Assembly: GCA_038087875.1 (NCBI GenBank)
Contig: JAXLNO010004019.1
Span: 1 to 64,000 of the forward strand
Length of the DNA: 64,000 nt
DNA from: Malacoraja senta
Lineage: Eukaryota
Direction: 5' to 3'
Shown: positions 7,190 through 51,900 of the stretch, in pieces
Numbering within the stretch: the stretch's first letter is position 1
Layout: every line of letters begins with the position of its first letter
Notes under the pieces: generated by a model
Seen by the model: the letters and a program-made list of their open reading frames with translations, nothing else
The model's database searches: none
What the model was told of the DNA's origin: nothing
Made by a program: the position numbers and the translations under genes

Positions 7190-7475
7190 CACTCTGAGCA
7201 CTGACACACACTTGGACACTCCTTTTTTTTAAATTTCAAAATATACTTTATTCAAGTAATAAATATTTACAATACGTGAACCGTGCGAAAAATTAATCCG
7301 GCATTTTCGGAGGCTATACAAATTGTCCAATGCAGTTAATACATTTTTTTTCAAATTCCACAAATCCGTCCCCCACCCGTGCCACTCATGTGGCCCCCTG
7401 GCGTGGGATACCTTCCCTTATTTTGAGGGGCGTCTCCACCATACCGTGCCCCCCATGTCCAGCAGCGGGAGGACC

Positions 7476-10400
7476 CTAGACTGCGGCCCTCCCCCATCGA
7501 GCCTTGGCGTTGGCTGCACCAAGCTTCAGTGCATCCCTCAGCACGTACTCCTGCAGTCTGCAGCGGGCCAGTCGGCAACATTCCCTGACGGACATCTCGC
7601 TCTGCTGGGTGGTGAACAACGCTCGGGCAGACCAAATAGCGTCTTTCGCCGAGTTGATGACCTTCCAGCAGCATTCGATGTCAGTCTCTGAATGTGTCCC
7701 TGGGAACAGTCCGTAAATCACAGAGTCCTCTGTGACGGAGCTGTTCGGGATAAAGCGTGCCAGGGATCCCTGCATACTTCTCCAGATTCTTTTTGCAAAT
7801 CCACACTCTGCGAAGAGGTGGGCAACCGTCTCCTCTCCATAGCAGCCGTCCCGTGCGCTGGCAGTGAGGTTCTCGACGGTGCAGGAAAGATCTGACTGGG
7901 AGGGCTCCCCTCACCGCCAGCCAAGCCAGGTCTTGGTGCTTGTTGGTGAGTTCTGGCGATGAGGCATTTTGCCAGACAAGCTGGGCAGTCTGCTCTGGGA
8001 ACCACGCCACCGGATCAATCGAGTCCTTTCCCTGCAGTGCCTGCAGGACGTTCCGTGCTGACCACTGCCCAATGGACATGTGGTCAAAGGTGTTGGTCCG
8101 GAAGAACCTTTCCACAGACGACAGATGGGGCAGCAATGTCCAGCTGACTGGCACATTGCGTGGCATCTGCGCCAGGCCCATCCTTCGCATCCTTCAGCAG
8201 GTAGTGACACTTGGTGCCCATGTGCCTTGGCTCTACACTCCGCCTGATGCAGCCACACACAAAGGTGGCCATCAGGGTGAGGGCGACGTTGGGCACGCTT
8301 TTACCCCCGTTGTCTGCTGACTTGTACATTGTGGCCCGTCGCACCCGGTCTATCCTCGACCCCCAGATGAACTGGAAGGCGGCCCGGGTGATCCCTGTGG
8401 CGTAGGAGGGAGGGACAGGCCACACTTGCGCCAAGTACAGCAGCCCCGAGAGCACCTCACACCTGATGACCACATTTTTTCCGGTTATGGAGAGGAGCGT
8501 TGCCTCCACAGCTCTAGCTTCTTCCCCACCTTGACTATCCGCTCCAGCCAATTCTTGTTACACGCCTCAGCCCCCCCGAACCAGATCCCCAGCACCTTCA
8601 AGAAGTCAGGCTTGATGGTGAAGGGGACAGAAGTTCGGTCGGGCCAGTTGCCAAAGAGCATGGCCTCGCTCTTCCTGCGGTTCACCCTGGCTCCCGTGGC
8701 CGACTCAAACTGGTCGCAGATACTAATCAGTCTGCGGACCGACCCTGGATCCGAGCAGAAGACAGCGACATCGTCCATGTACAGGGACATTTTGACGAAT
8801 GCCCCCACTGCCTGGCAATGTCACTCCTCTTATGCTCGCATATTCCTGATGGACTCGGCAAAAGGTTCAATACAGCAGATAAACAAGACAGGAGAGAGAG
8901 GGCACCCCTGCCTGACTCCAGACCTTACAGGGAAACTGTCTGATTCCCACCCATTGATTTGGACTGCACTACGGATATTGGTGTAGAGCAGTTTGATCCA
9001 ATTTCGGATTCCCTCCCCAAAACCCATTTTGGAGAGCACGTCCCTCATGAACGTGTGCGATATCCTGTCGAAGGCCTTCTCCTGGTCCAAGCTGACTAGG
9101 CAGGCATCCACCCGTCTGTCCTGCACGTAGGCGATGGTATCTCTCAGCAGCAGGTACAGCACAGGTTTGTGTTGGATCACCTGTCCCAGAGCTGACTTGA
9201 CCCGGTTGGCGATGGCCTTAAACAGGATCTTGTAATCTACATTCAACAATGTGATGGGTCTCCAATTCTTTATATCCTTCATCTCCCCCTTCTGCTTGTA
9301 GATTAGGGTGATGCTGCCATTCCTCATGGAGTCTGACATGCTGCTGGCTAGAAGCATGTCGTTGTACACTTCCAGCAGGTCCGGGCCCACCCAGTCCCAC
9401 AGAGCCGAATACAACTTGGCCGGTAAGCCATCGCTTCCGGGAGTTTTACTCGAGTCAAAGGAACGGATGGAGCCAGTCAGCTCCTCTAGGGTCAGTGGTT
9501 GGTCCAGACTCTCCCGCTTGCTGTTCTCCAAGACCTCCGTGATAGAGGACAGGAAGTTCTGGGAGGCGGTGCTGTCTGTGGCCTTTTTGTCGTACAAATC
9601 CGTGTAAAAGGATTTGCAGATCCTCAGCATGTCCGTCTGCGAGGATGTTACCGAGCCGTCCTCTTCCCTAAGGCTGTTCATCACAGAGCTTCCCCTGTGA
9701 ACCTTATGGAAGAAGAAACGTGAGCACGTCTCATCCTGCTGCACATGGCGGACCCTGGATCGGAAGATGATCTTGGAGGATTCAGACGTAAAGAGCCGAG
9801 CTTGCCGGTCCTTCACCTCTCTGTTCCTCCCTCACATCCACCCCTCTCGACTGCAGAAGGAGCAGTTGTTGCAAATCTGTCTGGAGTTGGCACAATTCCC
9901 TCTGACTCTGTCTTGCTCTCTGAACCCCTTTAACTATGAAGAACCTCTTAATGTTCTCCTTGGTTGCTTCCCACCAGCGTGTCGGGGAGTCAAAGAGGGG
10001 CCTCACCGTTCTCCAACATGCGTAGTCCCTCTTTAGCTCCTCAACGTTCTCTGGGGTCAACAGCTTCATATTTAACTTCCACGTCCCCCTGCCTGCCTTC
10101 CGGTCCTCCTGTAGGTGACAGAAAGCCCGAAGGAGGCAGTGGTCAGAGAAGAACACCGGCGTGAGGTCGGTGTGTCTCACCGTGACGGCCTTCGTCGTGA
10201 AGACGAAGTCTATCCGGGGTCGGGCTAAACCGTCCGATCTCGACCAGGTGAAATGCAGCTGGGACCTGCCTGCAGGGTTGCTGAAGGCGTCGTGCAGCTT
10301 TGCATCTTTTACCGTCTCCATGAGGAACTTGGACGTGCTGTCCAGTCTGTTGTCGGCACTGCCGGATCGTCCAGCCGCATCGATGATGCAGTTGAAGTCA

Positions 10401-10837
10401 CCGGCCAGAACGAGCTGCCGGGACGTGGCCAGCAGCGATGGGAGCTGCTGGGGAACGGCCAGCCGCTCGCTCTGCACGGGTGAGGTATACACATTAATCA
10501 GCTGGAGCGTAGAACCACGGTACATAACATCCACCACGGGGAGACGCCCCCCAACCACCTCCCTGACCTCAGCGATGGCGAAGTTCCCTCCCCGCAGCAA
10601 GATCCCCAGGCCGGAATCGCAACAGTCATTGCCCCCCGACCACACCGACAGTCCGTGGGGCCACCATCGCGACCACCTCCGGTAGCAGCGGAGGTGCGGC
10701 AGCCCGCACTCGTGGGGAAAAGTCACATCTGCCTTGACGTTGGCCAGGTACTGCAAGGCATTTACACATCGCCCAGTGCTCTTTATACTGCGCACGTTTA
10801 AAGATGCCAGTTTTATCTCCATTGTCTTTAGAGTCAC
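7476..10837 (-). pseudogene. Tx1 ORF2 (APE endonuclease, RT, C-terminal Cys domain), frameshifted
   Basis: SLNVRS, GDFNC, IDFVF...SDH (endonuclease); KTPGSDG, NWRPITL, DQEKAFD, GVRQGCPLSP, LYMDD (RT). Confidence 0.9.
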
Positions 10838-10859
10838 TGACCATTCTCGTGTCCCCTCA

Positions 10860-12405
10860 TGCCCACCGCTTCAGTGAATTGCCTCAGCTTTCCTGGGCTC
10901 AGGAACCCAGTGCCGGCATCCTCAATGAGGTGGGTTTCCTGTGGCGTAACCCAAGGTGTCGTTGGGAGGGGCCTACTCGTTCCACCCGCTTCAGGGCGCG
11001 CTGCTTCCTCCGTAGCTGGGGTACGGTGGCTGGTTCACTGCTCCTGCAAGCCCGGGGTTGGGGCCCATCGGCCGCTGCGCTGCTACCGGTCGCCCGGAGC
11101 TGGGGCCCATTCGCCGCTGCAATGCTCCCAGTTGCCCCATCTTGTCGCCTGTGCATAGGTGCAGGCTCTTTTAGGGGGCCCCATCGACCGCTGCGATGAT
11201 CCCGGTCTCCAGGGGCTGGAGCCCCTCGGCCTCTGCACTGCTTCCGATGTCCTGGCGCTGGAGCCCCTCGGCCGCTGCTCTGCTCTCGGTCTCCTGGGGC
11301 TGGGGGATGATCGGCGTGGCCTTTCTCTTTTCCTCCCCTGTTTTCTTCCTCTGCCTCCATCGTTGGGACTTCCCGGTCGCCTCATCCTCCGACGAGGAGA
11401 GGTTGCTGCCTTCTGTCAGGGAGAAAGATCTTTTTTGGGATTTATTTTTGGGCTTACCAGCCCTTTCCAACCTCGGCTCTTTCGGCTGAACCCTCTGGTG
11501 CTTCTTGTACATCACCGTCGTCCATTTCTCCTGCTGTCCCCCCTCCTCCATCGACTCTCCCTCCTGGGCAGGGTGATGGGGGTCTCCTTCCGGCACTTGG
11601 GGGATCGAGGTGGTCGGGCTGTCCTCGTCCCTGTTCCCCCTTTCTGCTGCAGTCTTGGCAATGGTGAGGGGTGTCTCACCCACCCTGGGGGTGCTGGCAG
11701 CAGCCCCTCTTGTCGCCTGTGCATAGGTGCAGGCTCTTTTAGGGCAGGCCCTGTAAAGGTGGCCTGCCTCCCCACACAGGTTGCAGTTCTTGCTGGCCTG
11801 ACAGTCCTTTGACAACTGCAGTGCATTGGACCATCACATGCCCAGGCTTGTTGCATTTCCTGCACAGCCTGGGTTGCCCCGTGTAGCTCATGTACCCTCG
11901 GTTCCCTCTGATAGCGAACAACGAGGGAGGGTGGATGATGGCTCCGTTCTTGTCCACCCTCAGCTTCACCTTCACTTGCCGCTTGCTCGTCCAGATCCCG
12001 TACAGGTGCTTTATGTCCACACAGTTCCCTGCTCCCTCGACATGACGAACAAGGAAGGTGAGGACATCCACTACGGGCACATGTGGGTTGAACGTGCAAC
12101 GTGATCATCCTTTCCTTCTGGGTGGGGGGGATGAAGAGCGGCAGCGGAGCTTCATTCCCCTTCTCCCGGAAGTCTTCCATCAACTTTTGCCATCCCGTCG
12201 GATACTTGAAGGTAACATCAATGTATCCATTACCCGGGAACTCCTGGAGGCAGTAGATGTCCTTGGCCTCAAATTTGCAGGCCTCTAGCAAGACCTTCTT
12301 CACGAACAGGTCCCGTGAGAAGGGAACCCCCTTGCTGAGGTCCTTAACGCTGATTCTCAGGGTATTGCGGATACCCTGTACTCCCGCTCCAGTTGCTGCT
12401 GCCAT
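10860..12405 (-). pseudogene. Tx1 ORF1 (gag-like, CCHC zinc knuckles), frameshifted
   Basis: Knuckles CRKCNKPGHVMVQC and CNLCGEAGHLYRAC; N-terminus IRNTLRISVK...DIYCLQEF; low-complexity repetitive C-terminus. Confidence 0.85.
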
Positions 12406-34518: not shown

Positions 34519-35301
34519 ATGAAAGAAGAAATTACAAACTCTGTTCATGAAGTGTTGGAAGCCTGGAAGATAACAATGGAAGAAAATCTTACTCTACAGA
34601 TCGAAGAGGTAAATGTTAAAATAAATTCGATGGAATCCAGCTTTAATTCTAAGTTGGATACCATCATCCAGACATTAAATCAACAAAATACAGCTATAAC
34701 TCAATTAGAGGATATTGCTGAGACAGGTGCCGAAACTACAAAAAAGCTTCTCTCCGAGAACAAGCGTTTATCAGACTCATTGAGTAAAATAACTGAAAAA
34801 TGTATTGACTTGGAGGGATGTCAGAGACGACAAAATTTAAGAATTGTGGGCGTCCAGGAAGGCAGAGAGGGGAGCCGTGACCTCCGTGAATTTTCTGCAG
34901 ACTTATTACAAAAAGTCTTAAATCTTGATCAAAAACCCCTACTAAGTCGGGCACACAGAGCACTGGGACGCCGCCCAAGACAACTGATAGTGAAGGTGCA
35001 ATATGGCCATGTTTTGGATAATATGATGAAGAAAATCGTTCGCAACAGAGATCTCCTATTTGAAGGAGACAAGATCAGTATATTTAGAGATTATCCTGTG
35101 GAGGTCACCAGGAAGAGAGCGCTGTTTACAGAGACAAGAAGAATACTTAAGAATATACAAGATCTGAGATTATGGACTGATGTATCCCGCAACACTGAGT
35201 TACCTACAAGAGGAAGGAATATTTCTTCACTGACCACAAGGAAGCACTTGATTTCGCCCTGGACATTGAGAATAAGACCGATGATTGAACAATACTTGTG
35301 A
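34519..35301 (+). CDS. L1 ORF1 protein (coiled coil, RRM, CTD; transposase-22-like), 3' end frameshifted
   Basis: LEGCQRRQNLRIVGVQEG...RAHR...PRQLIVK...ISIFRDYP. Confidence 0.8.
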   Translation: MKEEITNSVHEVLEAWKITMEENLTLQIEEVNVKINSMESSFNSKLDTIIQTLNQQNTAITQLEDIAETGAETTKKLLSENKRLSDSLSKITEKCIDLEGCQRRQNLRIVGVQEGREGSRDLREFSADLLQKVLNLDQKPLLSRAHRALGRRPRQLIVKVQYGHVLDNMMKKIVRNRDLLFEGDKISIFRDYPVEVTRKRALFTETRRILKNIQDLRLWTDVSRNTELPTRGRNISSLTTRKHLISPWTLRIRPMIEQYL

Positions 35302-35826
35302 GATTCAAAATCACAAATGCTTTTAGAGACAAAGTCGGCAAAGAAGCTTTTTATTCAAATCATATTCTGCAGAATAGGTGCCTCTCCTCTGATGTCCCCT
35401 AGAGGCACACCGAGGATCGGGATGTCTTCTATCTTTATACATTTCATGGGTATCATTGTCACACCCTCATCCCTCCCCATTGTGCTTCTTCCAATCATAA
35501 CATAAAGCCCACATTCCCACGAGAACGTCCTGGAACGTCCACCCGGCGTCAAAGACACCTCCCATATCATGCATCGCATGTGCATTTAAATGAGACATCT
35601 TGTCATAGTGGGTGTGTGTACATATTCATGTAAGTTCATTGCCCATGCGCACAGAGTGTTTCTTATGACCCTTACCCTAGTTCTATCCTGGACGGTCTCC
35701 TTATCTTCTCTGTTCTCATCCTTGAAAAAGTCACCATCTGTGCTCGTTCTTCACTCCCCCTATCCTCCCTACTATACAAAGGGTTCTTGTCTAAATCAAC
35801 TTATACCTATTAACCCCTTCCTCACA
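35297..35826 (-). repeat. ERV 3' LTR (530 bp)
   Basis: TG...CA ends; differs from the 5' LTR by ~7 substitutions and one 12-bp tandem duplication (by eye). Confidence 0.93.
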
Positions 35827-35828
35827 AT

Positions 35829-35844
35829 CCACACTTTTACTTTT
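35829..35844 (-). promoter_or_regulatory. Degenerate polypurine tract
   Basis: AAAAGTAAAAGTGTGG, 2 nt upstream of the 3' LTR. Confidence 0.65.
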
Positions 35845-35862
35845 GCTACTGCAATCTTTGAT

Positions 35863-36500
35863 TTAGACTATCTGCCCCTTCTCTAATGCTAGCAGCAGAA
35901 TCTTCGCCTCCTTATCTTCCTCTCGCTGGTCATACTTTGTTTTAAATAGGCACAGCAACCCCATCATAACTACCACTGATGTTAGGGCTGATGTAAAGAT
36001 GTGCTTCCATTTCCCAAACCAGGAGTCTAGAAACCCGGTCCAGGAGGTGTCTACTCCGGAGTTCTCGGGCAATTCGATAGACAGGGAGGTGAGACCTGCT
36101 AGGGCTCTCGATACTGACCCATCAGGAGCAGTGTTGTTGGAGATGAAGGTGCAACATTGTTCCCCAAACATTACACACACCCCTCCCTTCTCAGCCAGTA
36201 GCATGTCTAAGGCCATGCGATTTTGCCAGGCCATTAGGCTGGTATCTGTCAGTTGTTCCGCTAATCCTTCAACCGCATCTCGAGTGTAATTTATAAAGCG
36301 TTGTTGATTGTAGTATAGGTAGTTGATCCAGTCCACATTTTTATTAAGTGTGGACCACCAGAAGAGTATGGACTCAAAGCCCGCAGCTATCTGGTTTCTG
36401 GCTTTGAATTCATCGGGTACCCCTCTTGGCACCCCTATCGCATCTATATATATGTGTGTGTTGAAGGGTCTGTCCTTCGGCCCTTTGTATTGTTGTTGCT
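35863..36500 (-). pseudogene. env: Retroviral env, TM subunit remnant
   Basis: IDAIGVPRGVPDEFKARNQIAAGFES, immunosuppressive domain QNRMALDMLLAEKGGVC, CX6CC motif; SU, furin site and part of the anchor/tail are deleted. Confidence 0.92.
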
Positions 36501-36908
36501 AGCCGGGAATAGGTAATGATAACTCTGGCAGGTCGCATCCTTTGGTAGGATGGGATTCGTGAATTGCTGTAGTATACATGACATAGCCCCAGGTGTCCTA
36601 TCCCAATTCAAGGGAAATGGTTCTGGAACCAGCTGAGGCTTAGCAATTGGTGTGTTGCATACTCCTGGCCGTGTACATCATCCAGGCAAGCCAGGTGTTG
36701 GCTCCCTTCCCTCCTGTAGGTATTCCCTCCTCATATAATTGCCTTAATTCTGTTTCTCCTGCTACTATCATTATCTTCAAATCCTTAGGCTCATTCTCCC
36801 TGTTCTATCTGCACATATCCAATACCTACCACTTTCCTGCATTTGAACACTCTGTATGCTTACATAGTTGGGTAACCACCCAACACACGACCCACCAACA
36901 CGAAATCT

Positions 36909-37307
36909 TCATTTTTCCCGCGGGTTCTTGTTAAATATTAAAGTCAATGGTTCCTCTCCTTTGCGCACAGTCCACGGGCTGATATTGTTTGGTGGGGCCT
37001 CCACAGGTCCCTTAAATCGGCTTGCGTGTGTCCACCCTTTTTCTTTTGTTCGTACTGCTGTCTCGGTGATTAGTAACACCAGGTAGGGTCCAGTCCACTT
37101 AGGTTGCAGCTTTTCTTCCTTCCATGATGTTACAAGATCCCAGTCCCCCGCTTTCACAGAATGGATTGGAAAGTCGAGATGGGGACTCTGTGCCAGCAGC
37201 CCCTTGGTTCTTAATTCTGTAATAGAACGAGATACTGCCAGTAAATAGTTCCTTAGGAATACATCATCCCCTTGTATTTGTTGGGACCCCTTCTATCTTT
37301 CCTAAAT
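36909..37307 (-). pseudogene. pol: pol integrase C-terminus, type B
   Basis: FLRNYLLAVSRSITELRTKGLLAQSPHLDFPIHSVKAGDW...WKEEKLQPKWTGPYLVLLITETAVRTKEKGWTH. Confidence 0.85.
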
Positions 37308-40300
37308 AATAAAGACCTAACTTGTTCAACCTTTCTCTGTGTCTTAGTTGCTGAAACCCAGTCAACATTCTAATTGATCTCCTCTGTACTCTCTCTATTT
37401 TGTTGACATCCTTCCTATAATTATGCCTACCAAAATTATACACCATACTCCACAATTGACCTCACCAATACCTTGTACAATTTAACATTACAACCCAACT
37501 TCTATACACAATGCTCTGATTTATAAAGGCCAACACACCAAAATCTTTCTTTACCATCCTATCTTCATGAAATTCCACCTTCAGGGAACTATGTACAGTT
37601 ATTCCTAGATCCCTCTATTCAACTTCATTCCTCAATTCACAATCATTTACCATGTACATTCAATTTTGATTTGTCCTGCCAAGATGTATCATCTCACACT
37701 TATCAACATTAAACCTATCTGTCATGTTTCAACCCATTCTTCCAAATGATCTAAATCTCTCTGTACACTTTTAAAATCTACTTCATTATTCACAACACCA
37801 CCTATCTTAGTATCATCTACATACTTATTAATCTATTTTACCACATCAACATCCAGATTATTGATTCACATGACAAACAACAGTGGACCCAACACACATC
37901 CCCGAGGTACCCTTCTAGTCACTGACCTCCAACCTGACAAACATCCATCCACCATTGCTCTCTGACATCTCCCATACAGCCACTTTTTAATCCATCTTGC
38001 TATTCCTTACTAACCCTTCTTAACCAACCTTATTTCTTTATTGAACCTTGTCAAAGGCCTTACTGAAGTTCATCTAGACAACATCCATCACTTTATTATT
38101 TTTTTTTTAAATTTTTATTTACATTACATTACAACCACATACATTAGTACTCGTCATTTATATCTTCTTACAATTAATGTACTCCATTTATTTTTTACAC
38201 TAGAAAAGGAAAAGATTGAAAAAAAGAAGAAAGTGAAGGAAAAAGTGAAAGTGTAGGAAATGTGACAACAAAAAAGGACGAAGACCCTATAAGAGCAAAA
38301 TTAAAAACAAAAGAAAAAGAGTTAAGAAATAGACCCTAGGAAAGAAAGAGGAAAAAGAGAGAAATAAATATTTTTATGAGCATTACGTAAATGGGACATA
38401 CCAACTCTTCAACTATCATCCCCCCCTTACCTGACCTCAATTTTTTAAATTTTTTTTAAAGTACTTTTGCACCCTATGTTTGTAATAATTCTATAAATGC
38501 AGACCACGTCAGGTGGAAGTGATCTGGTTTACCTGCTAGGAGGAGTCTTATCTCTTCTAGGTGTAATGTTTCAAACATATTTGAAATCCACATATTTATA
38601 GTTGGTATTGGAGCCTTCTTCCAAAATTTTAGAATTAGCTTTTTTCCAATTATTAACCCATAGTCCATTAGTTTCTTTTGAAACACATTTAGTTCTGGAC
38701 CATCTTCCGTTATACCGAAGATAATCCATTCTGCTTTGGGTATCAGTCTTGTTTTAAATAACTTTGTAAAGATTTCAAAAATTTCATTCCAAAATTTTTG
38801 AATTTTTGTACAGAAAACGAATGAGTGCGCTATAGTAGCTTCTTGGGATTGACATTTATCACAAATAGATGATACATTTGGGAAAATGTTATGAATTTTA
38901 GTTTTCGAATAATATAATCTATGTAAAATTTTAAATTGTATTAAAGTGTGTCTTACATTAATCGAGCATTTATGCACGTTTAATAAGTATTCATTCCAAC
39001 TTTCCTTTGAAATTTTAATAGCTAACTCTTGTTCCCAGTCTCTTCTGATACCCTCCGTAGGTGGTATTTGTACATTTAAGATAATATTATACAAATAAGA
39101 TATTAAGTTTGCTGATTCCGCTTTTATCTGCATTGCCTCGTCCAATACATCTACTGGGTTATTATAATGATCTTTTGTATATTTTTTCAAATAGTCGCAT
39201 ATTTGAAAATATTTAAAATATTGATTATTTCCGAGTTTATATTTTATTTGTAATTGTTGAAATGAAAGTAATTTTCCAGTTTCATACAAGTCACCAAGCG
39301 TTTTAATTCCTAATCTATCCCATTGTGTATAAGCTTTATCTATAATAGAAGGATTAAACGAAGGGTTATTGACTATAGGTAATAAAAGTGATAAATTTCT
39401 TAATTTTAAATTTTGTTTTATTTGTTTCCAAATTCGGATTGTACTATGAATAATTGGGTTCTTATTATAATTTATGTTATTCAGTTTCATTGGAGAGAGG
39501 AGGATCGCTCCAATGTTTCTAGAGGAGCAATCCTCTTTCTCCATTACAATCCAGTCCACTTGCTGGGCGGAGTTATCCATCAGTTGAATCATATTTTTAA
39601 TATTTACTGACCAATAATAATACATAAAATTAGGTAGTGCTAGACCCCCTAATACTTTAGGTTTATTCAGATGAGTTTTTTGTATTCTATGTGATTTATA
39701 GTCCCATATAAAATTAGTGATATCTGAGTCGAGTTTTTAAAAAAAACTTCTTTGGTAAGTATATAGGAATTGATTGAAATAGGTATAAAATTTGTGGTAA
39801 AAAGATCATTTTTATTGCGTTTATTCGGCCTATTAAAGACATCGGGAGCGTTTTCCAGAATTTAATTAGTGTGTTTAATTTATTAAGTAAGGGGTCAAAA
39901 TTGGCCCTAAACATACCTTGATATGATCTGGTAATTTCGATTCCCAAGTATTTAAATTTTTCTATAGCTATTTTAAAAGGGAATTTTAAAAGATGTGTTG
40001 AATCTTTCGGTTTTATTGACATAATTTAACTTTTATTCCAATTTATTCTATATCCAGAAAAAGATCCAAAGTCTTCAATTAAATTTAATATATTTGGTAT
40101 AGTGATTTGAGGTTTTGTAATGTACAGTAATATATCATCCGCGTATAAAGATATTTTATTATATGAATCTTTAGTATTATATCCATGGATATCAGGGTGT
40201 ATTCTATTTTTTTCTGCTAGCGGTTCAATAATGAGAGCAAACAGCTGTGGTGATAATGAGCATCCTTGTCTATTTCCCCTTGATAGTTGGAATTTCGAGG

Positions 40301-42318
40301 ATAATATGTTATTAGTTAGTATTCTAGCTGTAGGTTTTGTTATATAGTAACTTGATCCATAGAATAAAATTCTCCCCCAGTTGAAATTTTTGTAATACTT
40401 TGTCCATATAATTCCATTCTACTTGATCAAATGCTTTTTCAGCATCCAGCGAAATAATTGATAATTCTTGATCCTCAGATTTGTGTGAGTGCATTATGTT
40501 GAGTAGACGTCTCATATTGTTAGATGAGTATCTCTTGGGGATAAACCCCGTCTGATCTGGGTTTATTAATTTACTAATGTATTTACTTAATCTTCTAGCT
40601 AATGTTTTCGCTAATATTTTTTGATCTGTGTTTAACAATGCTATAGCTCTATATGAACCAGGTGCTTCTAAGTCTTTATTTTTCTTAGGTATTAATGTAA
40701 TCGTTGATTCCGCTAATGTATCAGGTAGTATTCGTTTTTTAAAAGCATATTGGTACATTTTTTGTAATCTTGGTATTATTTTATCATAAAAGCTTTTATA
40801 AAATTCATTAGTAAATCCGTCAGGGCCTGGTGTTTTTCCATTCTTTAGTGAGTTTATTGTATCTTCTAATTCCTTAATTGAGATTTGTGCACCCAGTTCC
40901 TCTTGTTCCTTCAGCTCTAACTTTGGAAGATTACAGGTGATATTATTGGAATCAATTGTCGTTTTAGATGTATACAAATTCTCATAAAATTGCGCAAATC
41001 TATTATTAATATCCTTTGGTGTTGTTAATAATTCCCCTTTATCTGATTTGATCTTTGGTATAGTATGTTCCTTTTCTCGTTTTTTTAGCTGGCGAGCCAA
41101 AAGTTTATGCGGTTTATCCCCAAATTCAAAATGCTCTTGTTTTGTAATTTGAAAAAGTCTTATAAGTTTGGCAGATAATAATTTATTTAATTTAAATTTC
41201 AAAATTATTATTTTATTATGTTTATCTATTGATGGATCTTTAGCATTATCTATATCCATTTGTCTAATAAGTTCTTCTAACTGTCTTTGTTCATTCTTAT
41301 TCTTTTTATTTTGAAAAGCTTGATATGAAATTATAATACCCCTAATGTATGCTTTAAAAGATTCCCATAATACAGTAGGCGATATATCTGGAGTATCATT
41401 TATTTGAAAAAAGACCTCCATTTGTTCTTTTAAATATATACTCGCTTGTGGATCTTTTAGAATTTGAGAATTAAATCTCCAAAACGATTTATTCTTAGAC
41501 AATCCTTCCAGTTTTAAAAAGAAAGTTAGTGGAGAATGGTCTGAAATCGAGTTTGTGTGGTATATTGCATTAGATGTTTGGGGGATTAATTTTGTATCCA
41601 GCAGAAAGTAGTCTATACGTGAGTATGTCTTATGTACCATTGAGTAAAACGAGTATTCCCTGCCAGTTGGATTAACAATTCTCCAAACATCTGCTATATT
41701 AGTGTTTATATAGGTATTGAGAAGTTCACCAGTTTTCGATTTCATATTCCCTCTCTGTTTTTGACTTGATTTATCTAAGTACGGATCTAAAACACAGTTA
41801 AAGTCTCCTCCTATTATAACATTTTGATAGTTTGACTCTGCAATTATGTTGAAAATGTTATTGAAAAAGTGGGGGTTATCAAAGTTAGGGGCATATATAT
41901 TTACCAAAGTAAGTGGAGTGTCATGGATTTCTCCATTAACTATTAGGTATCTCCCTTCTATATCTGTTATAATATTCTTTGCTTTAAATGGTATACCTTT
42001 TCTTATGATGATTGACGTGCCTCTAGATTTTGAAGTAAATGAAGAATGGTATGTTTGACCTATCCATTTCGCCCTCAACCTAACTTGATCCTGAGATTTT
42101 AGGTGTGTGTCTTGTAGGAAGGTAATGTCGGAGTTGTACAATTTCAGCTCTTTACCCTCATCAATTTCCCTAATAACCTTTTCAAAAAATTCAAGATTAG
42201 TCAAACATCACAATCACAAATCCATGCTAATTCTTCCTAATCCTACCCTATTTATCCAAATTCTTATATATTGTCTTAAGTATCCTTTCCATTATTTTGC
42301 CCACCACTGATGTCAAAC
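37308..42318 (-). mobile_element. Hypermutated CR1 fragment inside the provirus (37308-38095 and 42150-42318), split by an L1
   Basis: Colinear with CR1 60470-61440; lacks both the 3' tail and a TSD; many substitutions at G and C. Confidence 0.85.
38096..42149 (-). mobile_element. 5'-truncated L1-type LINE (ORF2 with few frameshifts)
   Basis: ORFs 40324-42204, 39714-40022 and 38474-39625 cover endonuclease, RT and Cys domain; poly-A end at ~38096; short TSD CTTTA at 38091-38095 and 42150-42154. Confidence 0.92.
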
Positions 42319-42399
42319 AACGTTCTTGTTCAAACTCTACTCTTTTCTCACATCTTTGTCCTCCTGTTCACTTACCTCAGGGCTATTATCTATTCGTAC

Positions 42400-42900
42400 C
42401 TGCGGGACAGCCCTCAGGTATTATTGAAATGGTACCAGGTATATCAACCTTCTACCTGAACATCGGTCGGTAGTTTAGAAAACTCATACATACACCTTGT
42501 CTTCAGGTTTAAAGGGTCCTTCCTCCTGGTCCACCTCCAACAGCTTTTACTTTTCCTGTTCATAAATAGACTTGTATATCATAATTAACTGTTTCATATA
42601 CTTTTTAAATTCTATCTTTAACTGTTCCAAACTCGGTCTCTTGTAGGGACCTCTCCATTGTGCCACCTGCTCGGTTAGTTTGCATGCAACATCTCTTCAG
42701 TGCCAATGGCAGGGCATCGATCCAATTCAACTTTGTAATTAAACAAATCTTATTTATATTAACCTTCAATGTTCCATTTATTCTTACATACCCAAATGTG
42801 TATTTTACTCTAAGGGTCTCTATCGCCAATTTAGCTACTCCCTAAATGAAAACAATCCGTTGTCAAAGCTGATTTCTGTTGGTCTACCAAACCTCTTAAT
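42400..42900 (-). pseudogene. pol: pol integrase core and C-terminus, type A (decayed)
   Basis: IKRFGRPTEISFDNG, INGTLK...TKLNWIDALPLAL, YMKQL...GPFKPEDKVYV with stops and deletions. Confidence 0.75.
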
Positions 42901-44810
42901 TACCTTATTCATCATAAACGACACTACAGGGCTTATACCAAATCTAGTCTGAACTATATCCTGCCTTTAAATCCCTTTCTCTCTTGGGGACCCCAGTCCT
43001 GTTAGGGCTTATATCCAGATTAATTTCACTCCTGATAGGACCTTTTGAGGAAACGTACCCCAAAGACATTCATTATTGGCATGTAATTCTCTGGCCCTGC
43101 TTGGTTCCGTCATAGGACTCACTTAGGTCCATTGTTTATTGACAACACCTCCTCCTGCTGGTTTGCAAGTCTTTTTCCTATCTTTGCGATATTTCTCGAC
43201 CGCAGAGACCAACTGTTCGCTGAATCTGCTTGACTTTAAGAAGAATGACATCCACCACAGTAGTTCATAATATAATGTTCATCAATCAACTCTCCACCTT
43301 TTCAGCTGGTTTTCCAGATAGGCTATTTGCCTTTCCTTCTTGTGTATCTCCCCTTTGTTCCTTGGGGTTCCTCTTAAGTGGGTAACATTGTCTGAGGGTC
43401 TGCCATACCCTCTGCCTGACTGTGTCAAACAGTATGCCATTGCTTGTTACATTGTTCGCATCAGTTTATACCATCCATCTTCAGTAGTTCTGTCACTTTA
43501 GTGGTTCCTATCACTTTTACCAACAGTGCCTTCAAATCTTCCATGATCAATAATCGTCCCACGTTCTCCTCCAAAGCCCTAATCCATTTCCTACCCCATC
43601 AGGGATATAGGGTGAGGTATTTTTTAGCCCTTTCAGTTTATGGGTGCCCCAAGGGATAATCCGTGTCTGTCCTTCTCTTTTCTCTTTAAAGCAGTCTCAT
43701 CACTTTATCCCAATGCTTCCAACTTTAATCCTTTCTGGTATGCCTTCCTTCTAATTCTAAACTCAATTTCTTGCTTCTCAAATATTCTAGCCTCCTTGCA
43801 AAAATCTTCCACTGACTCCTCCTGCTTTATTACTTTCACGCCTGTTGTTTTTCTACTTCTGTTATCTTCTAACTGCCTCTCTCTCCTTTCTTTCTAAACT
43901 TGAATGTTTACCAATTAACTTATTTCCAATTATTTCAATCCATATTCACCACTATTTTAAATGTCCAATTCCTAGCACTAGTAACAATTTTCCAAATTAT
44001 CTTTACTGACTAGAAATCTAAAAGAACATCAGAAAAACCAAAAGCTGGTTTCACAACTTCCCCTTCTAGGTTAAGGCCAACAAACAATTAAACGTTATCT
44101 TACAGCTGTTCGTCGCCTTTCACCATGACCTGATTTATTTAAAGGAACATGCACCTACCTACAGTGAACATTTTTGATTTTAATAAAACTTACTTACTTA
44201 CTCTTACAATGTGGTCTACAAATACAATAAACAAAATAATTATCACATATATAAACTTCCTCTTTCATTCCCAACCGGTTTTTACACACAAATCACATTC
44301 GTTCCATTCTTACTTCAAATAAATGCAACATCTTTTACATGTATTAAAACTCAATATAACAGAATCAAATCATTTTTGTCTTCTTCAATCCCTGGGTATT
44401 TCTCTGCCCCCAGAGGCTCAGTATTCGCCCCAACGGACTATCAGGCAGAATGCGGGGTCGGGCTTACTGCCCTTCCCCTCCCTTTTGGGCTCTCCGTTTT
44501 CATTGCCCATCCTCCCGAGCGGAATTTTTCCCCCGATCTTCCTCCCGATCGGAATTTCCCCCCGATCTATTTGCCCCCGATCTATTTAATCGCCCGAGTA
44601 GTACTTAATAGTCAGTTTTCTTACCAGGGTCTTGTGCACAAGAATCACTCGATTTGGCTCCTTCACGATTTCCAACTACTCCCACTTCTTTGCTGAGTCT
44701 CTGTTCAGGGATACCACTCGCCCAAACCGCTGACGACAATCTAGGGGTCTGGGACCGCTGAAATCAACGGGGTGCACTGTCCCTTCTTCCGTATACCGTC
44801 GTCAGCCGGA
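42900..44810 (-). pseudogene. ERV leader and gag-region remnant, strongly C-depleted on the sense strand
   Basis: Positioned between PBS and integrase; weak MHR-like KQEESVEDF near 43800; many stops. Confidence 0.45.
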
Positions 44811-44816
44811 GTGGGG

Positions 44817-44835
44817 GTCCCGAGACGAGCCCCCA
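44817..44835 (-). promoter_or_regulatory. Primer binding site, tRNA-Pro type
   Basis: TGGGGGCTCGTCTCGGGAC, 5 nt inside the 5' LTR, versus canonical Pro PBS TGGGGGCTCGTCCGGGAT. Confidence 0.85.
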
Positions 44836-44840
44836 AAAAT

Positions 44841-45382
44841 TGTAAGATTCAAAATCACAAACGCTTTTAGAGACAAAGTCGGCAAAGAAGCTTTTTATTC
44901 AAATAATATTCTGCAGAATAGGTGCCTCTCCTCTGATGTCCCCTAGAGGCACACCGAGGATCGGGATGTCTTCTATCTTTATACATTTCATGGGTATCAT
45001 TGTCACACCCTCATCCCTCCCCATTGTGCTTCTTCCAATCATAACATAAAGCCCACATTCCCACGAGAACGTCCTGGAACGTCCACCCGACGTCAAAGAC
45101 ACCTCCCATATCATGCATCGCATGTGCATTTAAATGAGACATCTTGTCATAGTGGGTGTGTGTACATATTCATGTAAGTTCATTTACCATGCGCACAGAG
45201 TGTTTCTTATGACCCTTACCCTAGTTCTATCCTGGACGGTCTCCTTATCTTCTCTGTTCTCATCCTTGAAAAAGTCACCATCTGTACTCGTTCTTCACTC
45301 CCCCTATCCTCCCTACTATACTCCCTACTATACAAAGGGTTCTTGTCTAAATCAACTTATACCTATTAACCCCTTCCTCACA
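44841..45382 (-). repeat. ERV 5' LTR (542 bp)
   Basis: TG...CA ends; adjacent PBS; carries a CTCCCTACTATA duplication. Confidence 0.93.
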
Positions 45383-45985
45383 ATACTCAACACCCACCTG
45401 ACGTTACCGGACGGACATCGTTACCTCACAGAGAACAAATGGAACTTTAAATTGTTTTACTTAAGGACTAATGAAAGCTGATAATGATAGTCGAGCAAGT
45501 TTTTTTTATTGCTATTGATATATAACATTTATATTTTAGTACTAATTACTACTAATTATGATTACTAATTATTACTAATTATTATTAATTGGAGCCACTT
45601 AGAATTAGTTCAAAATATGAATTATAAGTAAGGTTTGATTCAGGCAATTTATTAATAATTTTTTTTTTTTTTTAATACTATTGACCAATTATCGATTCAT
45701 ATTTTTTTAATATGAGACTAATATTTTATCTTGAGAATAATAACTTTTTCACTAACAGATTATAAATATTTTGGACCTAAAAATGTCTTCCCCCTTCCCT
45801 ACAAATTGTTATTATTGAAACTTTTTTTAAAGAAAAGCATGGAGCTGGTATTATTATTTTTTTTCCAAAGGCTACGGAAGTCTTTAGATGGCTAGCCACA
45901 TTAGTGTGGCTATCACTAACTACACCAACTATAGATGTAGTTTTTTCTCTTCTTTTACACTTTATTAACCATTTATTCTTTCACC

Positions 45986-48900
45986 TTTTTTTATTTAAAT
46001 CTTTTTATTTGAATTTCACGTCAATTTACAAACATACAATAATAACAGACAGTAACAATCAAGGCATAATTGTACAACAGTATGTAAGCGATCCTCAAAA
46101 CCCTTACCCTTACCCACCTTCAACCCACCCAAGTCAGGTTGGAGCCAAACGGGGACAAACAACACTCACATACGTACACATCCACACACAAATGGTGGAA
46201 TAGACAAAACAAAATGTGCTATATAAAAATTTAAAAATATATATATATATCTAAATAAATAATTGTAGGGAGGGGGGGGGTTAAGGGGAAAGCAGCTGCT
46301 GTAGAACAAAACGATGATGGAGAACACTCAGTCCTCTTCCGAGTCCGGGGACAAGGTAAGAGAGTTAACCAGTTCAAAGAAAGGGTTCCATGTATCTAGG
46401 AATGTCTTGGTAGAGCCTTTGAGAGAGAACCTAAGTTTTTCAAGTTTCAGATTGTAAATCACCTCCTTAATCCAACGGGCATGTGTCGGGGGACAGATAA
46501 GCCTCCAACTAAGCAAGATCAGTCTCCGGGCTAACAAGGTTGTAAAAGCTAGGACCCGTTTCACCGCAACAGAGAGGTTAGTATTGGGAGGGGTACCGAA
46601 AATAGCTGACATTGGATTTGGAAGAATAGTCTGGTCGTAAGCTCTGCTTATCAATTCAAAAGAACTCCAAAAGGCTGCTAGCTTAGGGCAAGGCCAAAAC
46701 ATGTGGCTATGGTTGGCAGGAGATTGACTACATCTGTTACAGGTGTCATTAACAGCTGGGTACATTCTAGCTAATCTTGCATTTGTGTAGTGGACTTTGT
46801 AAAGGACTTTGCATTGGATTAGGCCATGACGAGCACATATGGAAGAAGAGTGGATCAAATCCAAGGCAGAGTCCCATTGCTGGTCTGTTAATTTCGTATT
46901 CAGCTCTCCCTCCAACGCAGCTTTTAATGAGGTATGAGGTTTCAATAAAACCGACCCTAGCAAATTATACAAAATAGAGATGCATTTCTTCCGATTGGGG
47001 TCTAAAGCTAAGATGATATCAGTCAGGGTTTCAGGAGGGCGATTTGGGAAGTAGGGAAATGTCTTCTTCACAAAATCCCTAATCTGGAAAAACCGAAAAA
47101 GGTGATGTTTGGGAGGTTGTAGTTAGACCAGAGCTCCACGAAAGATGAGAAGATGCCATCCTTATATAGGTTTTTAATACTACTGATGCCATTGCTATGC
47201 CAGGTTTTAAATGCGTGGTCTATACTTGAAGGTTTAAAAATGTGATTTTTAAGCAGTGGGGTCAAGATGGAAGGACCCTGTAAACCGAGGTTTTTCCTAA
47301 ATTGACTCCATATCTTGAGCGAAAGGGACACAATTGGGCCTGCACCCACAGATGTTATAGAAAGGGGGAGTTGGGAGCATAGGACAGACCGCAACGGGAG
47401 ACGTGAACTCGCCTTTTCCATATAAAGCCTGATCGGTGGGTGCTCGCAATCATCATTCATCCAATACAGGAGTTTTTGCAAGTTAGCTGCCCAGTAGTAT
47501 TGCCTAAAATCAGGGAGGGCCAAACCGCCATCACTCTTAGGCGACTGCAGTATCGCCTTTCGGATTCTGACCGGTTTGCTACCCCATAAGAATTTAGATA
47601 TTGTCCTTTCTAAGTTGTCAAAAAAAGATTTGGTGATAAGTATGGGGACATGCTGGAAAAGATACAGGAATTTGGGTAGGACAACCATCTTAACCAGATT
47701 TATCCGGCCCACGAGGGATAGCGGTAAGACTGACCAGCGATCAAAATCTTTTTCGGCTTTCTCAACCAGAGGCAAAAAGTTTGTGCGGAACATATCAGAT
47801 AAGGGTATTGTGATAAAAACGGTGAGATAGCGAAACCCATCCTCTGCCCTTTTGAATGAGGTTAAAGAGCGAGGGAGCTGCTTAGCCGGTAAGTTAATCG
47901 GTAATAGCTCACTCTTTTGGTAGTTAAGTTTATAACCAGAATATGCACCAAACCGTTCTAAAATATTCATAATCACAGGGAGAGAACTGACTGGGTTCGA
48001 GCAGGTCATCCGCATACAATGAGACTTTATGAGTTGTGTCAAACCGTGTAATACCTTTAAAGCCCTTCTCTGCGCGTAACCAGACCGCCAGGGGTTCTAT
48101 CGCGACAATAAACAAGAGTGGAGATAGTGGTACCTGTCTGGTACCTCTCTGAAGTGTGAAGTGGGGCGACAGTATGTCGTTTGTTTGTACTGAGGCCACC
48201 GGGGACGAATATAATAGGCTCACCCAGAGAATAAAACTGTTTCCGAGGCCAAACCTATCCATCGCCTCATATAGGTACCTCCACTCGACCCTGTCGAAGG
48301 CCTTTTCGGCATCGAGGGAGACCACCATCTCCGGGGTCTCATTACTCGAAGAGTGAATGATGTTAAGGAGACGCCTAGTATTATGGGAAGACTGTCGGCC
48401 AGGTACAAACCCCGTTTGATCCAACGAGATAATAGAGGGCATCACTCGTTGAAGACGAAGCGCAAGGGCTTTAGAAAGGATTTTGAGGTCCACATTCAGT
48501 AGTGAGATTGGTCTATAGCTACTACAAAGCAGGGGATCTTTCTCCTTTTTAAGAATTAGGGAGATGGTAGCCCACGACAAGGTGGGCGGTAGGCGACGAT
48601 GTAAAAACGCCTCATTGTACATATCTCTCAGGACTGGTGCGAGGAGGTCAGAGAAAGCTTTGTAATATTCTACTGAGAAGCCGTCAGGGCCGGGTGACTC
48701 CGCTTTGCAGCGATGTGATGGCTGCTTGGACCTCAGCTACAGTTATGGGACCACCCAAGTCTCTCATGGCTTCTTCGTCAATTCGGGGAAGCGTCATACT
48801 GCTGAACATGTCACCTGCAGTGGGCGGACAGTCGGAAGTGTATAGTTCAGTGTAGAATTTAGCAAATGCTTCATTAATTCTGCGAGGATCAGTATGAGTC

Positions 48901-51900
48901 TCCCCTGAGCTGGATCTAATGGCTGGAATTAGCCGTGAAGTCGCCTCTGTTCTGTCCTGATAGGCCAAAAGCTTTCCACCTTTATCCCCAGATTCAAAAA
49001 AGTGTTGCCTAGATTTGAGCAGTCGTAGATTGGCTTTATTAATGGATATGAGGTCAAAGTCTGTTTGTAGCCTAAGGCGTTCTCTATAGAGATTAGGGTT
49101 TGGGTCAGATGCATATTTGTCATCAATGTCCTTTATTTTTTGTAACAGATCTGCCGTTTGGAACGTCTCGGTTCTTTTCAGGTTGGAGATAAAGGAAATG
49201 AGTTGGCCCCTAATATAGGCTTTTGAAGCTTCCCAAAGTATACCTCTTTCTATGTCCGGCGAGTCATTCAGCTCAAAATATAGGGTGATTTGGGAGTGCA
49301 AGAATTGCATGTATTGAGCCTCTGCTAATAATGAGGAGTTGAACCTCCACTTAAAGGGGTTAGTTCGTTTACGAAAATGAAGATCAAGAGAGGTTGCAGC
49401 ATGATCTGATATAACGATGCTATGGTACTCACTAGATTTGATTTTGGAAAGCAATCTATTATCGAAGAGAAAGAAGTCTATACGGGTAAACGTACGATGT
49501 ACGTGGGAGAAAAATGAAAATAATTTAGTCGTGGGGAATATAAATCTCCATGGATCTGTAAGCCCCAGTTGTTTGGCAAGAACATGCACAGTCTTACCGG
49601 ATTTAGTTAAAGTAGAGGCTTTATTCGAAGATCTATCCAGTATAGGATCTTGGACCAGATTAAAGTCTCCACCCACAATGACATGGTGATTTTCAATATT
49701 TGGGAGAGATGTAAAATATTTAGTTATAAATGAGCTGTCATCCCAGTTGGGTCCATAAATGCTTGCCAATATGACAGGTGTGTCTTGCAATTTGCCCGAC
49801 ACCATGACAAAGCGACCAGCAGGGTCTTCCACAGTTTTCTGTGGTTCGAAATTAATGTTCTTACGAATCAGGATAGCAGTGCCCCTAGCCCTATTATTAC
49901 ATTTCGAGTGAAATAGTTGACTAATCCAGCCTCTCTTAAGCCGTGTTACCTCTCTGTTGCGAAGGTGGGTCTCTTGGATGAAGAATATATCACCTTTGAG
50001 CTGTTGCAAATGGGCCAAGATCCTATCAGTTTTGGTAGGACTTCCCGTCCCTCTCACATTCCACGAGACAAATCTAAGAGTATCGTTTGTGTTGGCCATA
50101 TTTAGCTATATGGGTAATGCGCTGTAGTTCTGCAAAACGAGACGGAAGAGCGCATCGAAGCCAGCTGCNNNNNNNNNNNNNNNNNNNNNNNNNNNNNNNN
50201 NNNNNNNNNNNNNNNNNNNNNNNNNNNNNNNNNNNNNNNNNNNNNNNNNNNNNNNNNNNNNNNNNNNNNNNNNNNNNNNNNNNNNNNNNNNNNNNNNNNN
50301 NNNNNNNNNNNNNNNNNNNNNNNNNNNNNNNNNNNNNNNNNNNNNNNNNNNNNNNNNNNNNNNNNNNNNNNNNNNNNNNNNNNNNNNNNNNNNNNNNNNN
50401 NNNNNNNNNNNNNNNNNNNNNNNNNNNNNNNNNNNNNNNNNNNNNNNNNNNNNNNNNNNNNNNNNNNNNNNNNNNNNNNNNNNNNNNNNNNNNNNNNCAC
50501 ACACAGCAAACAAGTGGAACACATATCATTTAACCATCTTTCAAACCTGAGACTCCAGACCTGAGATCCCCCATGTCTCAACTGAACCTTAAGTGCCCAT
50601 TGCACCAAGGTGCGTTGTCCTCGCTTCCGCATGGAGATATCCAATCTTAACTCCTTATATCACCGCTTCCCAAAGCGACGGTCACTCAGTGTCGATAAGA
50701 TAACATGAAGTAAAATAAGTATAGTAATAGTAATAATGACGATGATGATAATAATTTGAAAAATAGAGAGTAGGAATAAAGTAAGATAAACATACATTGA
50801 TAAATGCAAAGTTAAAATAATAACCATAATGGTTGCACTGCCAGTACCATTGCTAACACTAATAGTAATATTAGCAATGATGATAGTCACAATAAGACAA
50901 AGCATATTAACAAAATGGTGATAGTAAATAAACCGGCTAACCTGTAAGTGGATCCGGAATAACTTCCTTTGGTGTTACATAGTATGTCTTAAAATCGACA
51001 AAGTATAAAGAGAGAGTTGGCGTTGGAAAGGTTAGCAAATTACAAACTGGGCTGTTGGATTAAAGCACAGCGCTAAAGGCATCAATTATGTTTTGTTAAA
51101 CAAAAAAGGTATAAGATAAGATTTATATAACACCGCCCTGGCTGTAATGAGCTCTTATCAGCCTCAGACAGTTCGTTATGAAGATTAGTATAAGCAAACT
51201 AGCCAGGTGCTGACAGCGTTAGCGGGCAGCTGTTAAGAACAGGAAGGCAGAGACCAAATCACAAACCACAAAGTGGGTCCTTTAAGCCCAGTTTTATAGG
51301 ATATGCTGGTGAGGGACCCCTCAAGTATGATTACACATAGACAATATAAGAAAAAGTTAGTATAAAATATTCGCAAATCCTGGTGATTTCTTACCAGCCA
51401 CATACATTTTGAAACCGGGGTCTAGTATAATCAGCAATGCTGAACGCTAACCATAGCTAGTTATTAGGAACAGTCAAGCTAAAGTTAGTCCATGTAACCA
51501 TAGATTAACCGGCCCCTGTGCCACTCGAATATAGACGTACTGAACGAAGTCAGTCATCTGTCTGCGTCGATGGTAAGATGAGATGAAATCCTGAGCGTCC
51601 TCGGGAGATGTTGGTCGTCGCCTCTTTCCCTCCCCGGACATTATGAACAGCTTGGTTGGATAATGAAGGGAGGGTTTGAGACCCAGGTTATACAGCTCCT
51701 TCATAACGTCTCGGTACTCGAAGCGTTGTTCAACTATCTCGGGACAGTAGTCTTCGAAAATGTGGAACGGGGTATCTTTGTATTTCAGCTTACCCCTCTG
51801 TCTCCGAGCCTCACGTACCACCAACTCACGGGTCTGGTATCTATGGAAGCAGATCACAACTGCTCTGGGTTTTTCACCAGGGCTTGGCTTGGCTGTTAGC

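Follow-up and report, generated by a model that had tools for sequence, protein, structure and literature searches.

A reverse-polarity, strand-specific loss of cytosine in a non-autonomous endogenous retrovirus lineage of the skate Malacoraja senta

APOBEC editing of long terminal repeat (LTR) elements is described as G>A change on the sense strand, and a vertebrate screen took clusters of C>T as its negative control (Knisbacher and Levanon, PMC4866542). Zebrafish elements gave a negligible editing signal, in fish without APOBEC1 and APOBEC3 (PMC3880073). In mouse mammary tumor virus (MMTV) lacking Rem, C-to-T changes linked to AID occur on both strands (PMC7760323, PMC13120120). Reverse transcriptase (RT) working under skewed deoxynucleotides produces G-to-A changes when dCTP is low or U-to-C changes when dATP is low (PMC3511177), and errors in bacterial transcripts are biased toward C>U and G>A (Li and Lynch, PMC7259958). 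In sharks, AID is active and hypermutation includes tandem changes (PMC8201067). Here, we examined an endogenous retrovirus (ERV) in a 64,000-nucleotide stretch of the skate Malacoraja senta (assembly GCA_038087875.1, contig JAXLNO010004019.1, positions 1 to 64,000), termed “the window.” Inside this ERV lies a piece of a CR1 retrotransposon, termed the passenger, which has lost much of the C on its sense strand. Our literature search, with most subscription papers outside it, returned no account of the element, nor of any ERV that had lost C from its sense strand.

The provirus occupies the minus strand at 35297 to 45382, so that a plus-strand G in the window is a sense-strand C. It has TG...CA LTR ends and a flanking 5-bp target duplication. 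From its 5′ end, we found a leader, a broken gag, a broken integrase, and the CR1 piece, which an L1 interrupts; the tail of a second integrase and a deleted env follow. Non-autonomous recombinant ERVs and defective transducing retroviruses carry captured sequence in place of coding region, are mobilized in trans, and are mosaics built by template switching. The element is alike in those traits, having paired LTRs, a target-site duplication, a primer-binding site, no RT, many dispersed copies, and a helper family with the same LTR and leader. It differs in its cargo, an internal CR1 piece that reports mutation neutrally under each of two helper families, A and B.

The CR1 reference was refined in three steps, from 29 young free CR1 copies to 21 B-like copies and then to 17 copies of the closest subfamily. 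Against this source subfamily, 40 of 103 sense-strand C positions were changed (22 to T, 14 to A, and 4 to G), compared to 25 of 266 G positions (23 to A, 1 to C, and 1 to T), 12/272 A, and 14/263 T. Thus, about 39% of sense-strand C was lost, as opposed to 9% of G. With CpG sites removed, the difference persisted (C 37/98 versus G 23/261, Fisher P = 7e-10). On the plus strand, the whole passenger (37304 to 38095 and 42150 to 42318) gave G 40/100, C 23/264, A 15/262, and T 10/268. Transversions made up 18 of the 40 C losses (45%), and with the B-like subfamily as the reference, sense C>A reached 14/107 while G>T stood at 1/285 (P = 8e-8). A preliminary description of this locus had counted by hand, at 37681 to 37860, 7 changed G and 11 changed C on the plus strand along with 2 changes at A/T, and had placed the stronger loss on sense-strand C, opposite in polarity to APOBEC3. 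The hand count was exact at sites where two free CR1 copies agree, and the polarity holds for the full passenger. APOBEC3-type editing of LTR elements is alike in its strand-biased loss at C:G pairs before integration and in its gradient, high at the 3′ end (PMC4866542). However, it affects the opposite strand (here, C>T is 22/103 and G>A is 23/266), and here we found many transversions, no GG or GA preference, and stepwise inheritance in place of single hyperedited copies.

Such a pattern might have an ordinary cause: decay of an aged repeat, an AT-rich CR1 subfamily, assembly error, or spill-over of AID activity from an immunoglobulin (Ig) neighbor. A VH-JH pseudogene does lie 30 kb away, and CR1 sense strands are already C-poor. 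However, free CR1 copies change C and G alike (non-CpG, 42/2282 and 119/6905). No comparable skew was found in five other window repeats, used in place of the control at 3700 to 6480, which gave only short matches of ~70% among the loci compared. Losses fell at all codon positions (19/47, 17/34, and 8/26), 8 being synonymous, 30 non-synonymous, and 6 stops, and free CR1 subfamilies share 3 to 4 of 46 passenger changes; we therefore rejected an AT-rich CR1 subfamily as the source. The shared changes of free CR1 subfamilies had no clear sense-C bias of their own (2/135 versus 14/409, 5/195 versus 15/550, and 3/192 versus 3/545 for C and G). Also, the same alleles recur at 49 loci and in contigs of separate sequencing runs. 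We give an ordinary explanation next to no chance and regard it as already refuted; neither CpG dominance nor an aged-repeat spectrum nor an AT-rich subfamily, each raised in the preliminary description as a possible undoing of its reading, was found. In the background spectrum of free CR1 copies (L168-L190 and L342-L358), C>A/G>T transversions are frequent, and in the B-like set they equal non-CpG transitions in number.

We read 49 family loci from more than 150 candidates and 28 loci of a sister family from more than 40, all picked from search lists and not at random. A DNA search gave 40/40 scored matches at 96 to 100%, and a search with the second integrase tail (integrase-B) gave 150 scored matches. 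The passenger with its C losses was fixed in 49/49 family copies compared, which lie on many contigs, at least 13 of them chromosome scale; all 20 loci taken from the low end of the integrase-B match list carried it. Fixed C changes in these copies amounted to 38/101 in CR1, 28/95 in the broken integrase (integrase-A), and 31/137 in the broken gag (gag-A), with 14/95 in integrase-B (A, 18/135) and 2/200 in env as comparison parts. Changes private to single copies were symmetric (C 156/26749 versus G 271/48820), and a private mutation burst was seen in 0/49 copies. Since the losses are fixed across copies while private changes are symmetric, the C loss is a lineage trait acquired before integration and not damage to the window copy. 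The earlier proposals of a circulating non-autonomous lineage and of damage that predates integration are thus borne out. Contigs from four sequencing runs of four studies, labelled as four organisms, also cover the stretch; the clearest holds a 294-base passenger piece with 5 differences and comes from a low-depth run. RNA reads and putative RNA contigs matching the stretch mostly had free-CR1 letters and have no bearing on expression.

A search with a pol-deleted family-A copy revealed the sister family, of at least 40 loci (L331-L339 and L359-L378), which has the same CR1 5′ junction, spanned by 40/40 scored matches, and the full CR1 3′ end. Family-B parts had no match in the sister stretches read. 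Each sister copy has lost 4 to 15% of its passenger C. Non-CpG changes found in at least 3 of 29 sister loci struck C at 21/134 (12 to T, 6 to A, and 3 to G), G at 15/407, A at 7/403, and T at 5/387 (P = 9e-6). Private changes came to C 49/3095 versus G 126/8919, and the inherited and private ratios differ (P = 0.0008). The 29 loci include L340, which groups with free CR1, L341, a twin of L333, and the partial L362; a subset of 25 chromosome-placed loci gave C 19/134 versus G 14/401. The sister integrase-A part leaned the same way (C 11/118, all C>T, versus G 6/186, P = 0.04). Sister C losses fall on about five nested carrier groups, with 1 to 7 per group, and none of the 27 loci in the sister table showed a burst. 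The carrier patterns do not all fit a single tree, which suggests that recombination has been frequent.

The window family departs from the sister tree on one long branch (0.117). Sister copies carry 0 to 1 of the window's 26 A/T alleles; we therefore rejected them as direct stepwise ancestors of the window copy, and the C losses in common are parallel hits. C sites lost in the window were hit more often in the sisters (13/34 versus 9/59, P = 0.02). Change at A/T sites was 4.4 to 5.3% in the passenger, compared to 0.8 to 1.0% in free source CR1, 0.8% for private changes in the sisters, and 0.3% for private changes in the family; change on the stem was thus several times as fast as genomic decay. 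In the time since CR1 inserted, the genomic clock advanced ~1% at A/T, and the window passenger has changed 39% at C. The stem lineage probably went through many replication cycles. Taken together, C was lost from one strand as an inherited and not a private change, stepwise in the sister family and faster than genomic decay. Stepwise gain was seen in the sister family only and is not observable on the long stem.

Compared to one sister copy, the window element has lost 82 of 317 C, unevenly among CR1 (38/100), integrase-A (23/92), and gag-A (21/125, P = 0.0015), a gradient that is high at the 3′ end (38%, 25%, and 17%). C gains against the same copy numbered 8 in integrase-A and 14 in gag-A, the latter offsetting most gag-A losses. 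gag-A is also more distant from the sisters at A/T (38/440 versus 31/521), and the gradient may be explained by recombination that gave gag-A a separate history. The C-depleted block covers 37304 to ~43900. It had been claimed that the loss is confined to the 5′ half of the ERV and its CR1; the block itself stands, but the loss within it is uneven and the family-B leader (44349 to 44810) is unaffected. Likewise, the count of 11 G and 42 C at 43861 to 44040 in gag was correct, but its use as a sign of hypermutation was not. Five related family-A copies have 7 to 9 G and 36 to 38 C in the columns where the window has 8 G and 34 to 36 C, so the skew was inherited from the parent and is no evidence of hypermutation.

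We then considered sequence context. By 5′ neighbor, the lost fraction of C was 30/74 after G, 25/74 after T, 20/106 after A, and 7/63 after C; by 3′ neighbor, it was 39/95 before T and 5/64 before C. Both effects hold in the retroviral part alone. The preliminary description had pointed to RGYW-like sites. We found no significant WRC enrichment (20/38 versus 24/69, P = 0.10; 32/98 versus 50/219, P = 0.07), with G or T 5′ of C enriched instead. Neither the part outside CR1 (14/62 versus 30/155) nor the sister-family changes (8/42 versus 19/87) favored WRC. WGC was enriched (19/41 versus 63/276, P = 0.0035), a motif picked after the data had been seen. G>A changes (54/638 overall) preferred neither GYW (9/134 versus 45/504, P = 0.49) nor GG (7/187) nor GA (23/231). 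Changes were not clustered by a runs test (P = 0.25), and adjacent substitutions were not in excess (9 pairs, 8.8 expected). A link to RNA structure was rejected, as lost and kept C were equally unpaired (0.23 and 0.20, P = 0.78), and so was dislocation, in which the product equals the neighboring base, as C>G almost never followed G. A at −3 of lost C was enriched in CR1 (17/23, P = 0.003, one of six positions tested) and was not significant in the retroviral part (P = 0.09 to 0.33).

These context data bear on a possible AID-like deaminase acting on the non-template (sense) strand of transcribed germline master proviruses, with R-loops on G-rich transcripts helping, uracil excision and bypass yielding transversions, and mutated masters seeding subfamilies. 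Such an enzyme would account for a bias that is inherited and not private, for the transversions, and for the WGC preference, the avoidance of CC (7/63), and the greatest loss in the G-rich CR1 part. However, AC, which is half of WRC, was disfavored (20/106), WRC itself fell short of significance in the window and was absent in the sister data and the non-CR1 part, the other strand had no GYW excess, and the strands are unequal (C 39%, G 9%). C>A exceeds C>G here, whereas REV1-type bypass expects C>G over C>A. Family-B masters must also be transcribed, yet they are unbiased. Sharks have a functional AID, and sequence preference differs among the fish enzymes tested, but tandem substitutions, the mark of shark hypermutation, are not in excess here (PMC8201067). 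C-to-T changes rose on both proviral strands in Rem-minus MMTV and were linked to AID (PMC7760323), and Rem-lacking proviruses of MMTV and type B leukemogenic virus are alike in having sense-strand C-to-T and some transversions (PMC7760323, PMC13120120). In those proviruses, both strands are affected, at WRC and TYC motifs, whereas the change here falls mainly on one strand, has no significant WRC enrichment, and is germline and lineage-wide. We regard an AID-like cause as unlikely, though it is the main rival to the reading that we prefer.

Viral RNA or plus-strand DNA of the stem lineage may instead have undergone a single burst, or a few bursts, of editing by a packaged host deaminase, i.e., hypermutation of reverse polarity in a genome that survived because it needed no coding capacity. 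The long stem without intermediates and the context preference of lost C would fit, and APOBEC1 editing of retroviral RNA is mentioned in PMC7760323. The 3′-high gradient also resembles APOBEC3 editing gradients (PMC7760323, PMC3511177), although it is confounded by the greater distance of gag-A at A/T and its possible separate recombinant history. Private bursts were seen in 0/49 family copies and 0/27 sister-table loci, sister losses are few per branch, and A/T sites and indels were also fast. RNA deamination yields C>T alone, so that with 18 transversions among 40 losses it is insufficient by itself. We consider stem bursts improbable. Fainter still are the prospects of G damage (oxidation, alkylation, or depurination) in exposed single-stranded minus-strand cDNA, or of G damage in the DNA strand being transcribed that RNA polymerase II misreads, in either case fixed at the next copying. 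Its polarity agrees (minus-strand G>A, G>T, and G>C), a 3′-high gradient would be expected from single-strand lifetime, and C>A/G>T transversions are common in the background of this genome. Yet the main product, G>A, is not given by 8-oxoG, minus-strand GG is avoided (CC 7/63) while GG is the usual oxidation hotspot, and family B should have suffered equally.

On balance, we think that the loss of sense-strand C probably came from miscopying of template C, at the RNA or first-strand stage of each cycle, with the errors adding up over numerous cycles. A CR1 landed behind integrase-A of a pol-deleted family-A provirus, after which the element spread as the sister family. On one branch, most C was lost, the CR1 3′ end was lost, family-B LTRs, leader, integrase tail, and env were gained, and the element was re-amplified; an L1 later entered the window locus alone. 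The mosaic junctions would stem from template switching. The error step would lie where the strands differ, namely, at transcription, in RNA, or at first-strand synthesis. The C>T part could come from deamination of C to U in RNA, and the C>A and C>G parts from misincorporation opposite template C, e.g., at low dGTP. Losses would accumulate in the cargo because coding does not constrain it. The bias may be tied to family-A replication, through its RT, its nucleotide pool, or an RNA-damaging activity of the cells used, and may have weakened after capture by family B. The preliminary description had offered either a deaminase-type restriction or a replication bias. Replication bias fits better because changes per branch are few, private bursts number 0/49, WRC falls short of significance, C>A outnumbers C>G, and amplification, not restriction, was the fate of the lineage; restriction fits less well, and hypermutation in a single burst was not demonstrated.

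Two known systems resemble such a copying error in part. A-rich, C-poor lentiviruses are alike in the long-term drift of retroviral RNA to high A and low C, for which RT error or nucleotide pools have been proposed, but the routes there are G-to-A and U-to-C, whereas here C itself becomes U, A, or G (PMC3511177). In bacterial transcript errors, the two leading classes match the top two transitions here, C>T and G>A on the RNA strand (PMC7259958). However, that spectrum leaves C>A at 14% unexplained, and such errors would have to be fixed here by retrotransposition.

Inherited changes in family-B pol were C 4/176 versus G 7/283, 2/190 versus 5/252, and 3/168 versus 7/259, and the family-B parts after capture gave C 5/225 versus G 5/256. 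Pooled, these sets had no C bias (14/759 versus 24/1050, P = 0.62). Pooled family-A-type sets gave C 41/557 versus G 24/986, a ratio that differs from that of family B (P = 0.014). This contrast is suggestive only. Four-fold sites are C-poor (8 to 11%) in CR1, L1, a gypsy-like frame, and the RT of family A, while family B has 21 to 26% and family-A gag and integrase have 19%.

Several points weigh against a copying error tied to family A. In family B, the counts behind the negative result are small and come from sequence constrained by coding, and after capture CR1 plus integrase-A still leans to C (10/137 versus 14/390, P = 0.09). Open-frame family-A copies gave a weak signal (C 9/305 versus G 3/393), yet A (14/512) and T (14/358) changed as frequently, and four-fold sites of family-A frames are 9 to 19% C, far from the 1.6% implied by the passenger. 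The RTs of both families carry an ordinary YVDD motif. Low dGTP predicts G>T and G>C at second-strand synthesis, and both are absent. The mix of C>T with C>A/G and the WGC preference also fit deamination plus uracil excision in DNA, and with no intermediate found on the long stem, one or two bursts there are possible. A second pol-deleted family-A lineage (L254, L255/L300, L305, L306, and L311, on at least 3 chromosome-scale contigs) has a different CR1 insertion between gag-A and integrase-A. Its passenger first gave C 11/119 versus G 9/340 (P = 0.007), but we dropped it as a replicate: about 20 shared changes are CR1 subfamily differences, and a better source gives C 3/101 versus G 1/316, which is uninformative. 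Lastly, mutation of master copies under active transcription would look the same in the sequence as an error of the RNA phase.

A broader reading, which we put forward tentatively as possible, is that one clade of fish retroviruses lives under a mutator of reverse polarity, either its own RT or a niche-tied host activity, that turns sense C into U, A, and G where the context is G/T-C-T. The captured CR1 would then be a natural reporter of this mutator, active as long as family A was the helper and weaker once family B had taken over, and the use of sense C>T as the control in editing screens would hide it.

The mosaic origin is visible along the provirus, all parts of which lie on the minus strand. 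The target-site duplication at 35292 to 35296 recurs as the same 5 letters at 45383 to 45387. The 3′ LTR (35297 to 35826) matches LTRs of family-B copies and is 96% alike to the 5′ LTR (44841 to 45382), with 9 mismatches of mixed type. The internally deleted env (35866 to 36866) came from family B; its TM-region frame (35866 to 36498) matches TLV_coat (E = 3e-10), and 35944 to 36465 is 97 to 99% identical to nine family-B copies with no base bias. The C-terminal piece of integrase-B (36866 to 37308; MLVIN_C, E = 3.5e-9) is 84 to 88% identical to family-B copies and not C-depleted, its differences (at ~87% identity) being spread over all four bases. It overlaps the CR1 match by 5 bp at 37304 to 37308. 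The 3′ piece of the passenger (37304 to 38095), from the ORF2 RT region and in the same sense as the ERV, is strongly C-depleted, and the 5′ piece (42150 to 42318), with the junction common to the sister family, has lost 9 of 16 sister C. Integrase-A (42324 to 42945), broken and C-depleted, has a homolog with an rve domain and matches family-A loci. gag-A (42959 to 43900), also broken, is 72 to 86% identical to deleted family-A copies, with a weak net C loss, and a family-A leader piece (43905 to 44348) inherited its low C content from the parent. The family-B leader (44349 to 44840) is 84 to 92% identical to other family-B leaders with no bias, and next to the 5′ LTR it has a primer-binding site that is presumably of the tRNA-Pro type. 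Thus, the LTRs, this leader, integrase-B, and env match a gamma-like family B (Gag_p30 and TLV_coat domains), and gag-A, integrase-A, and the other leader piece match a separate fish ERV family A, whose RT is nearest to a Mobula protein (76%) and then to teleost proteins (66%). A Pfam search of the broken gag and integrase frames matched no domain, and Gag_p30 ERVs were rejected as the source of gag-A.

A 5′-truncated L1 with endonuclease and RT domains (38096 to 42149) sits within a 5-bp duplication (38091 to 38095 and 42150 to 42154). Only the window locus and one 99% duplicate locus have an L1 at this site; other family copies join 38095 to 42150 directly, and the L1 insertion postdates integration of the ERV. 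This explains why the nested L1 looks normal. The LTRs, env (~98% to family B), and integrase-B are likewise normal, as had been proposed. Compared to other L1 copies (L128, L138, L247, and L256), the nested L1 differs mostly by C<>T on the sense strand, balanced both ways (against L138, C<>T 34 + 42 and G<>A 9 + 7); the excess may reflect codon degeneracy or a milder RNA-phase lability of C. Family copies L009, L128, L129, L131, L272, L273, and L296 have later insertions of their own (L1, CR1, or other) at differing sites. Family members also vary widely in env deletions and in LTR and leader variants (window 35866 to 36866 against L261-L299 and L121-L140), and their ends look repeatedly exchanged with family B, with the C-depleted core constant.

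The Ig neighbor is a heavy-chain V pseudogene joined to J on the minus strand at ~6715 to 7030, with framework, YYCAR, and WGAGTSLTVTS motifs in shifting frames, and it looks germline-joined. Because family copies across many loci and at least 13 chromosome-scale contigs have the same changes, its proximity is incidental, as had been suspected. Adjoining it on the minus strand (~7400 to 12100) is a LINE, which we take to be of the Tx1/L1 type; its ORF1 has RNA-binding domains like those of ZCCHC3, and it also has endonuclease and RT. Another broken L1 lies at ~46000 to 50100. Provirus and flank recur in 2 to 3 copies per contig at 98 to 99% (C5857, C2078, C6061, and C3758) as a segmental repeat unit, possibly Ig clusters, and tandem arrays are also present on C7 near 26.2 Mb.

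Taken together, the mutation signature in this non-autonomous ERV lineage is real, replicated, specific to one strand, and reverse in polarity; it is neither a demonstrated restriction enzyme nor an effect of the Ig locus. Editing of retroelements has been read almost only as sense G>A, and in fish little of it has been reported (PMC3880073). The passenger examined here, neutral and of known origin, is strongly biased in the opposite direction and rich in transversions, and the pattern recurs in two families that have one insertion in common. The passenger yields a full 12-class mutation spectrum for an ERV lineage and a testable contrast of two helper families in one genome. Divergence dating of such elements overstates their age several-fold. 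If a host enzyme is responsible, it would be a candidate antiretroviral activity in a lineage without APOBEC1 and APOBEC3. If the RT or the nucleotide pool is responsible, retroviral genomes would have a way of becoming C-poor that does not depend on G>A.

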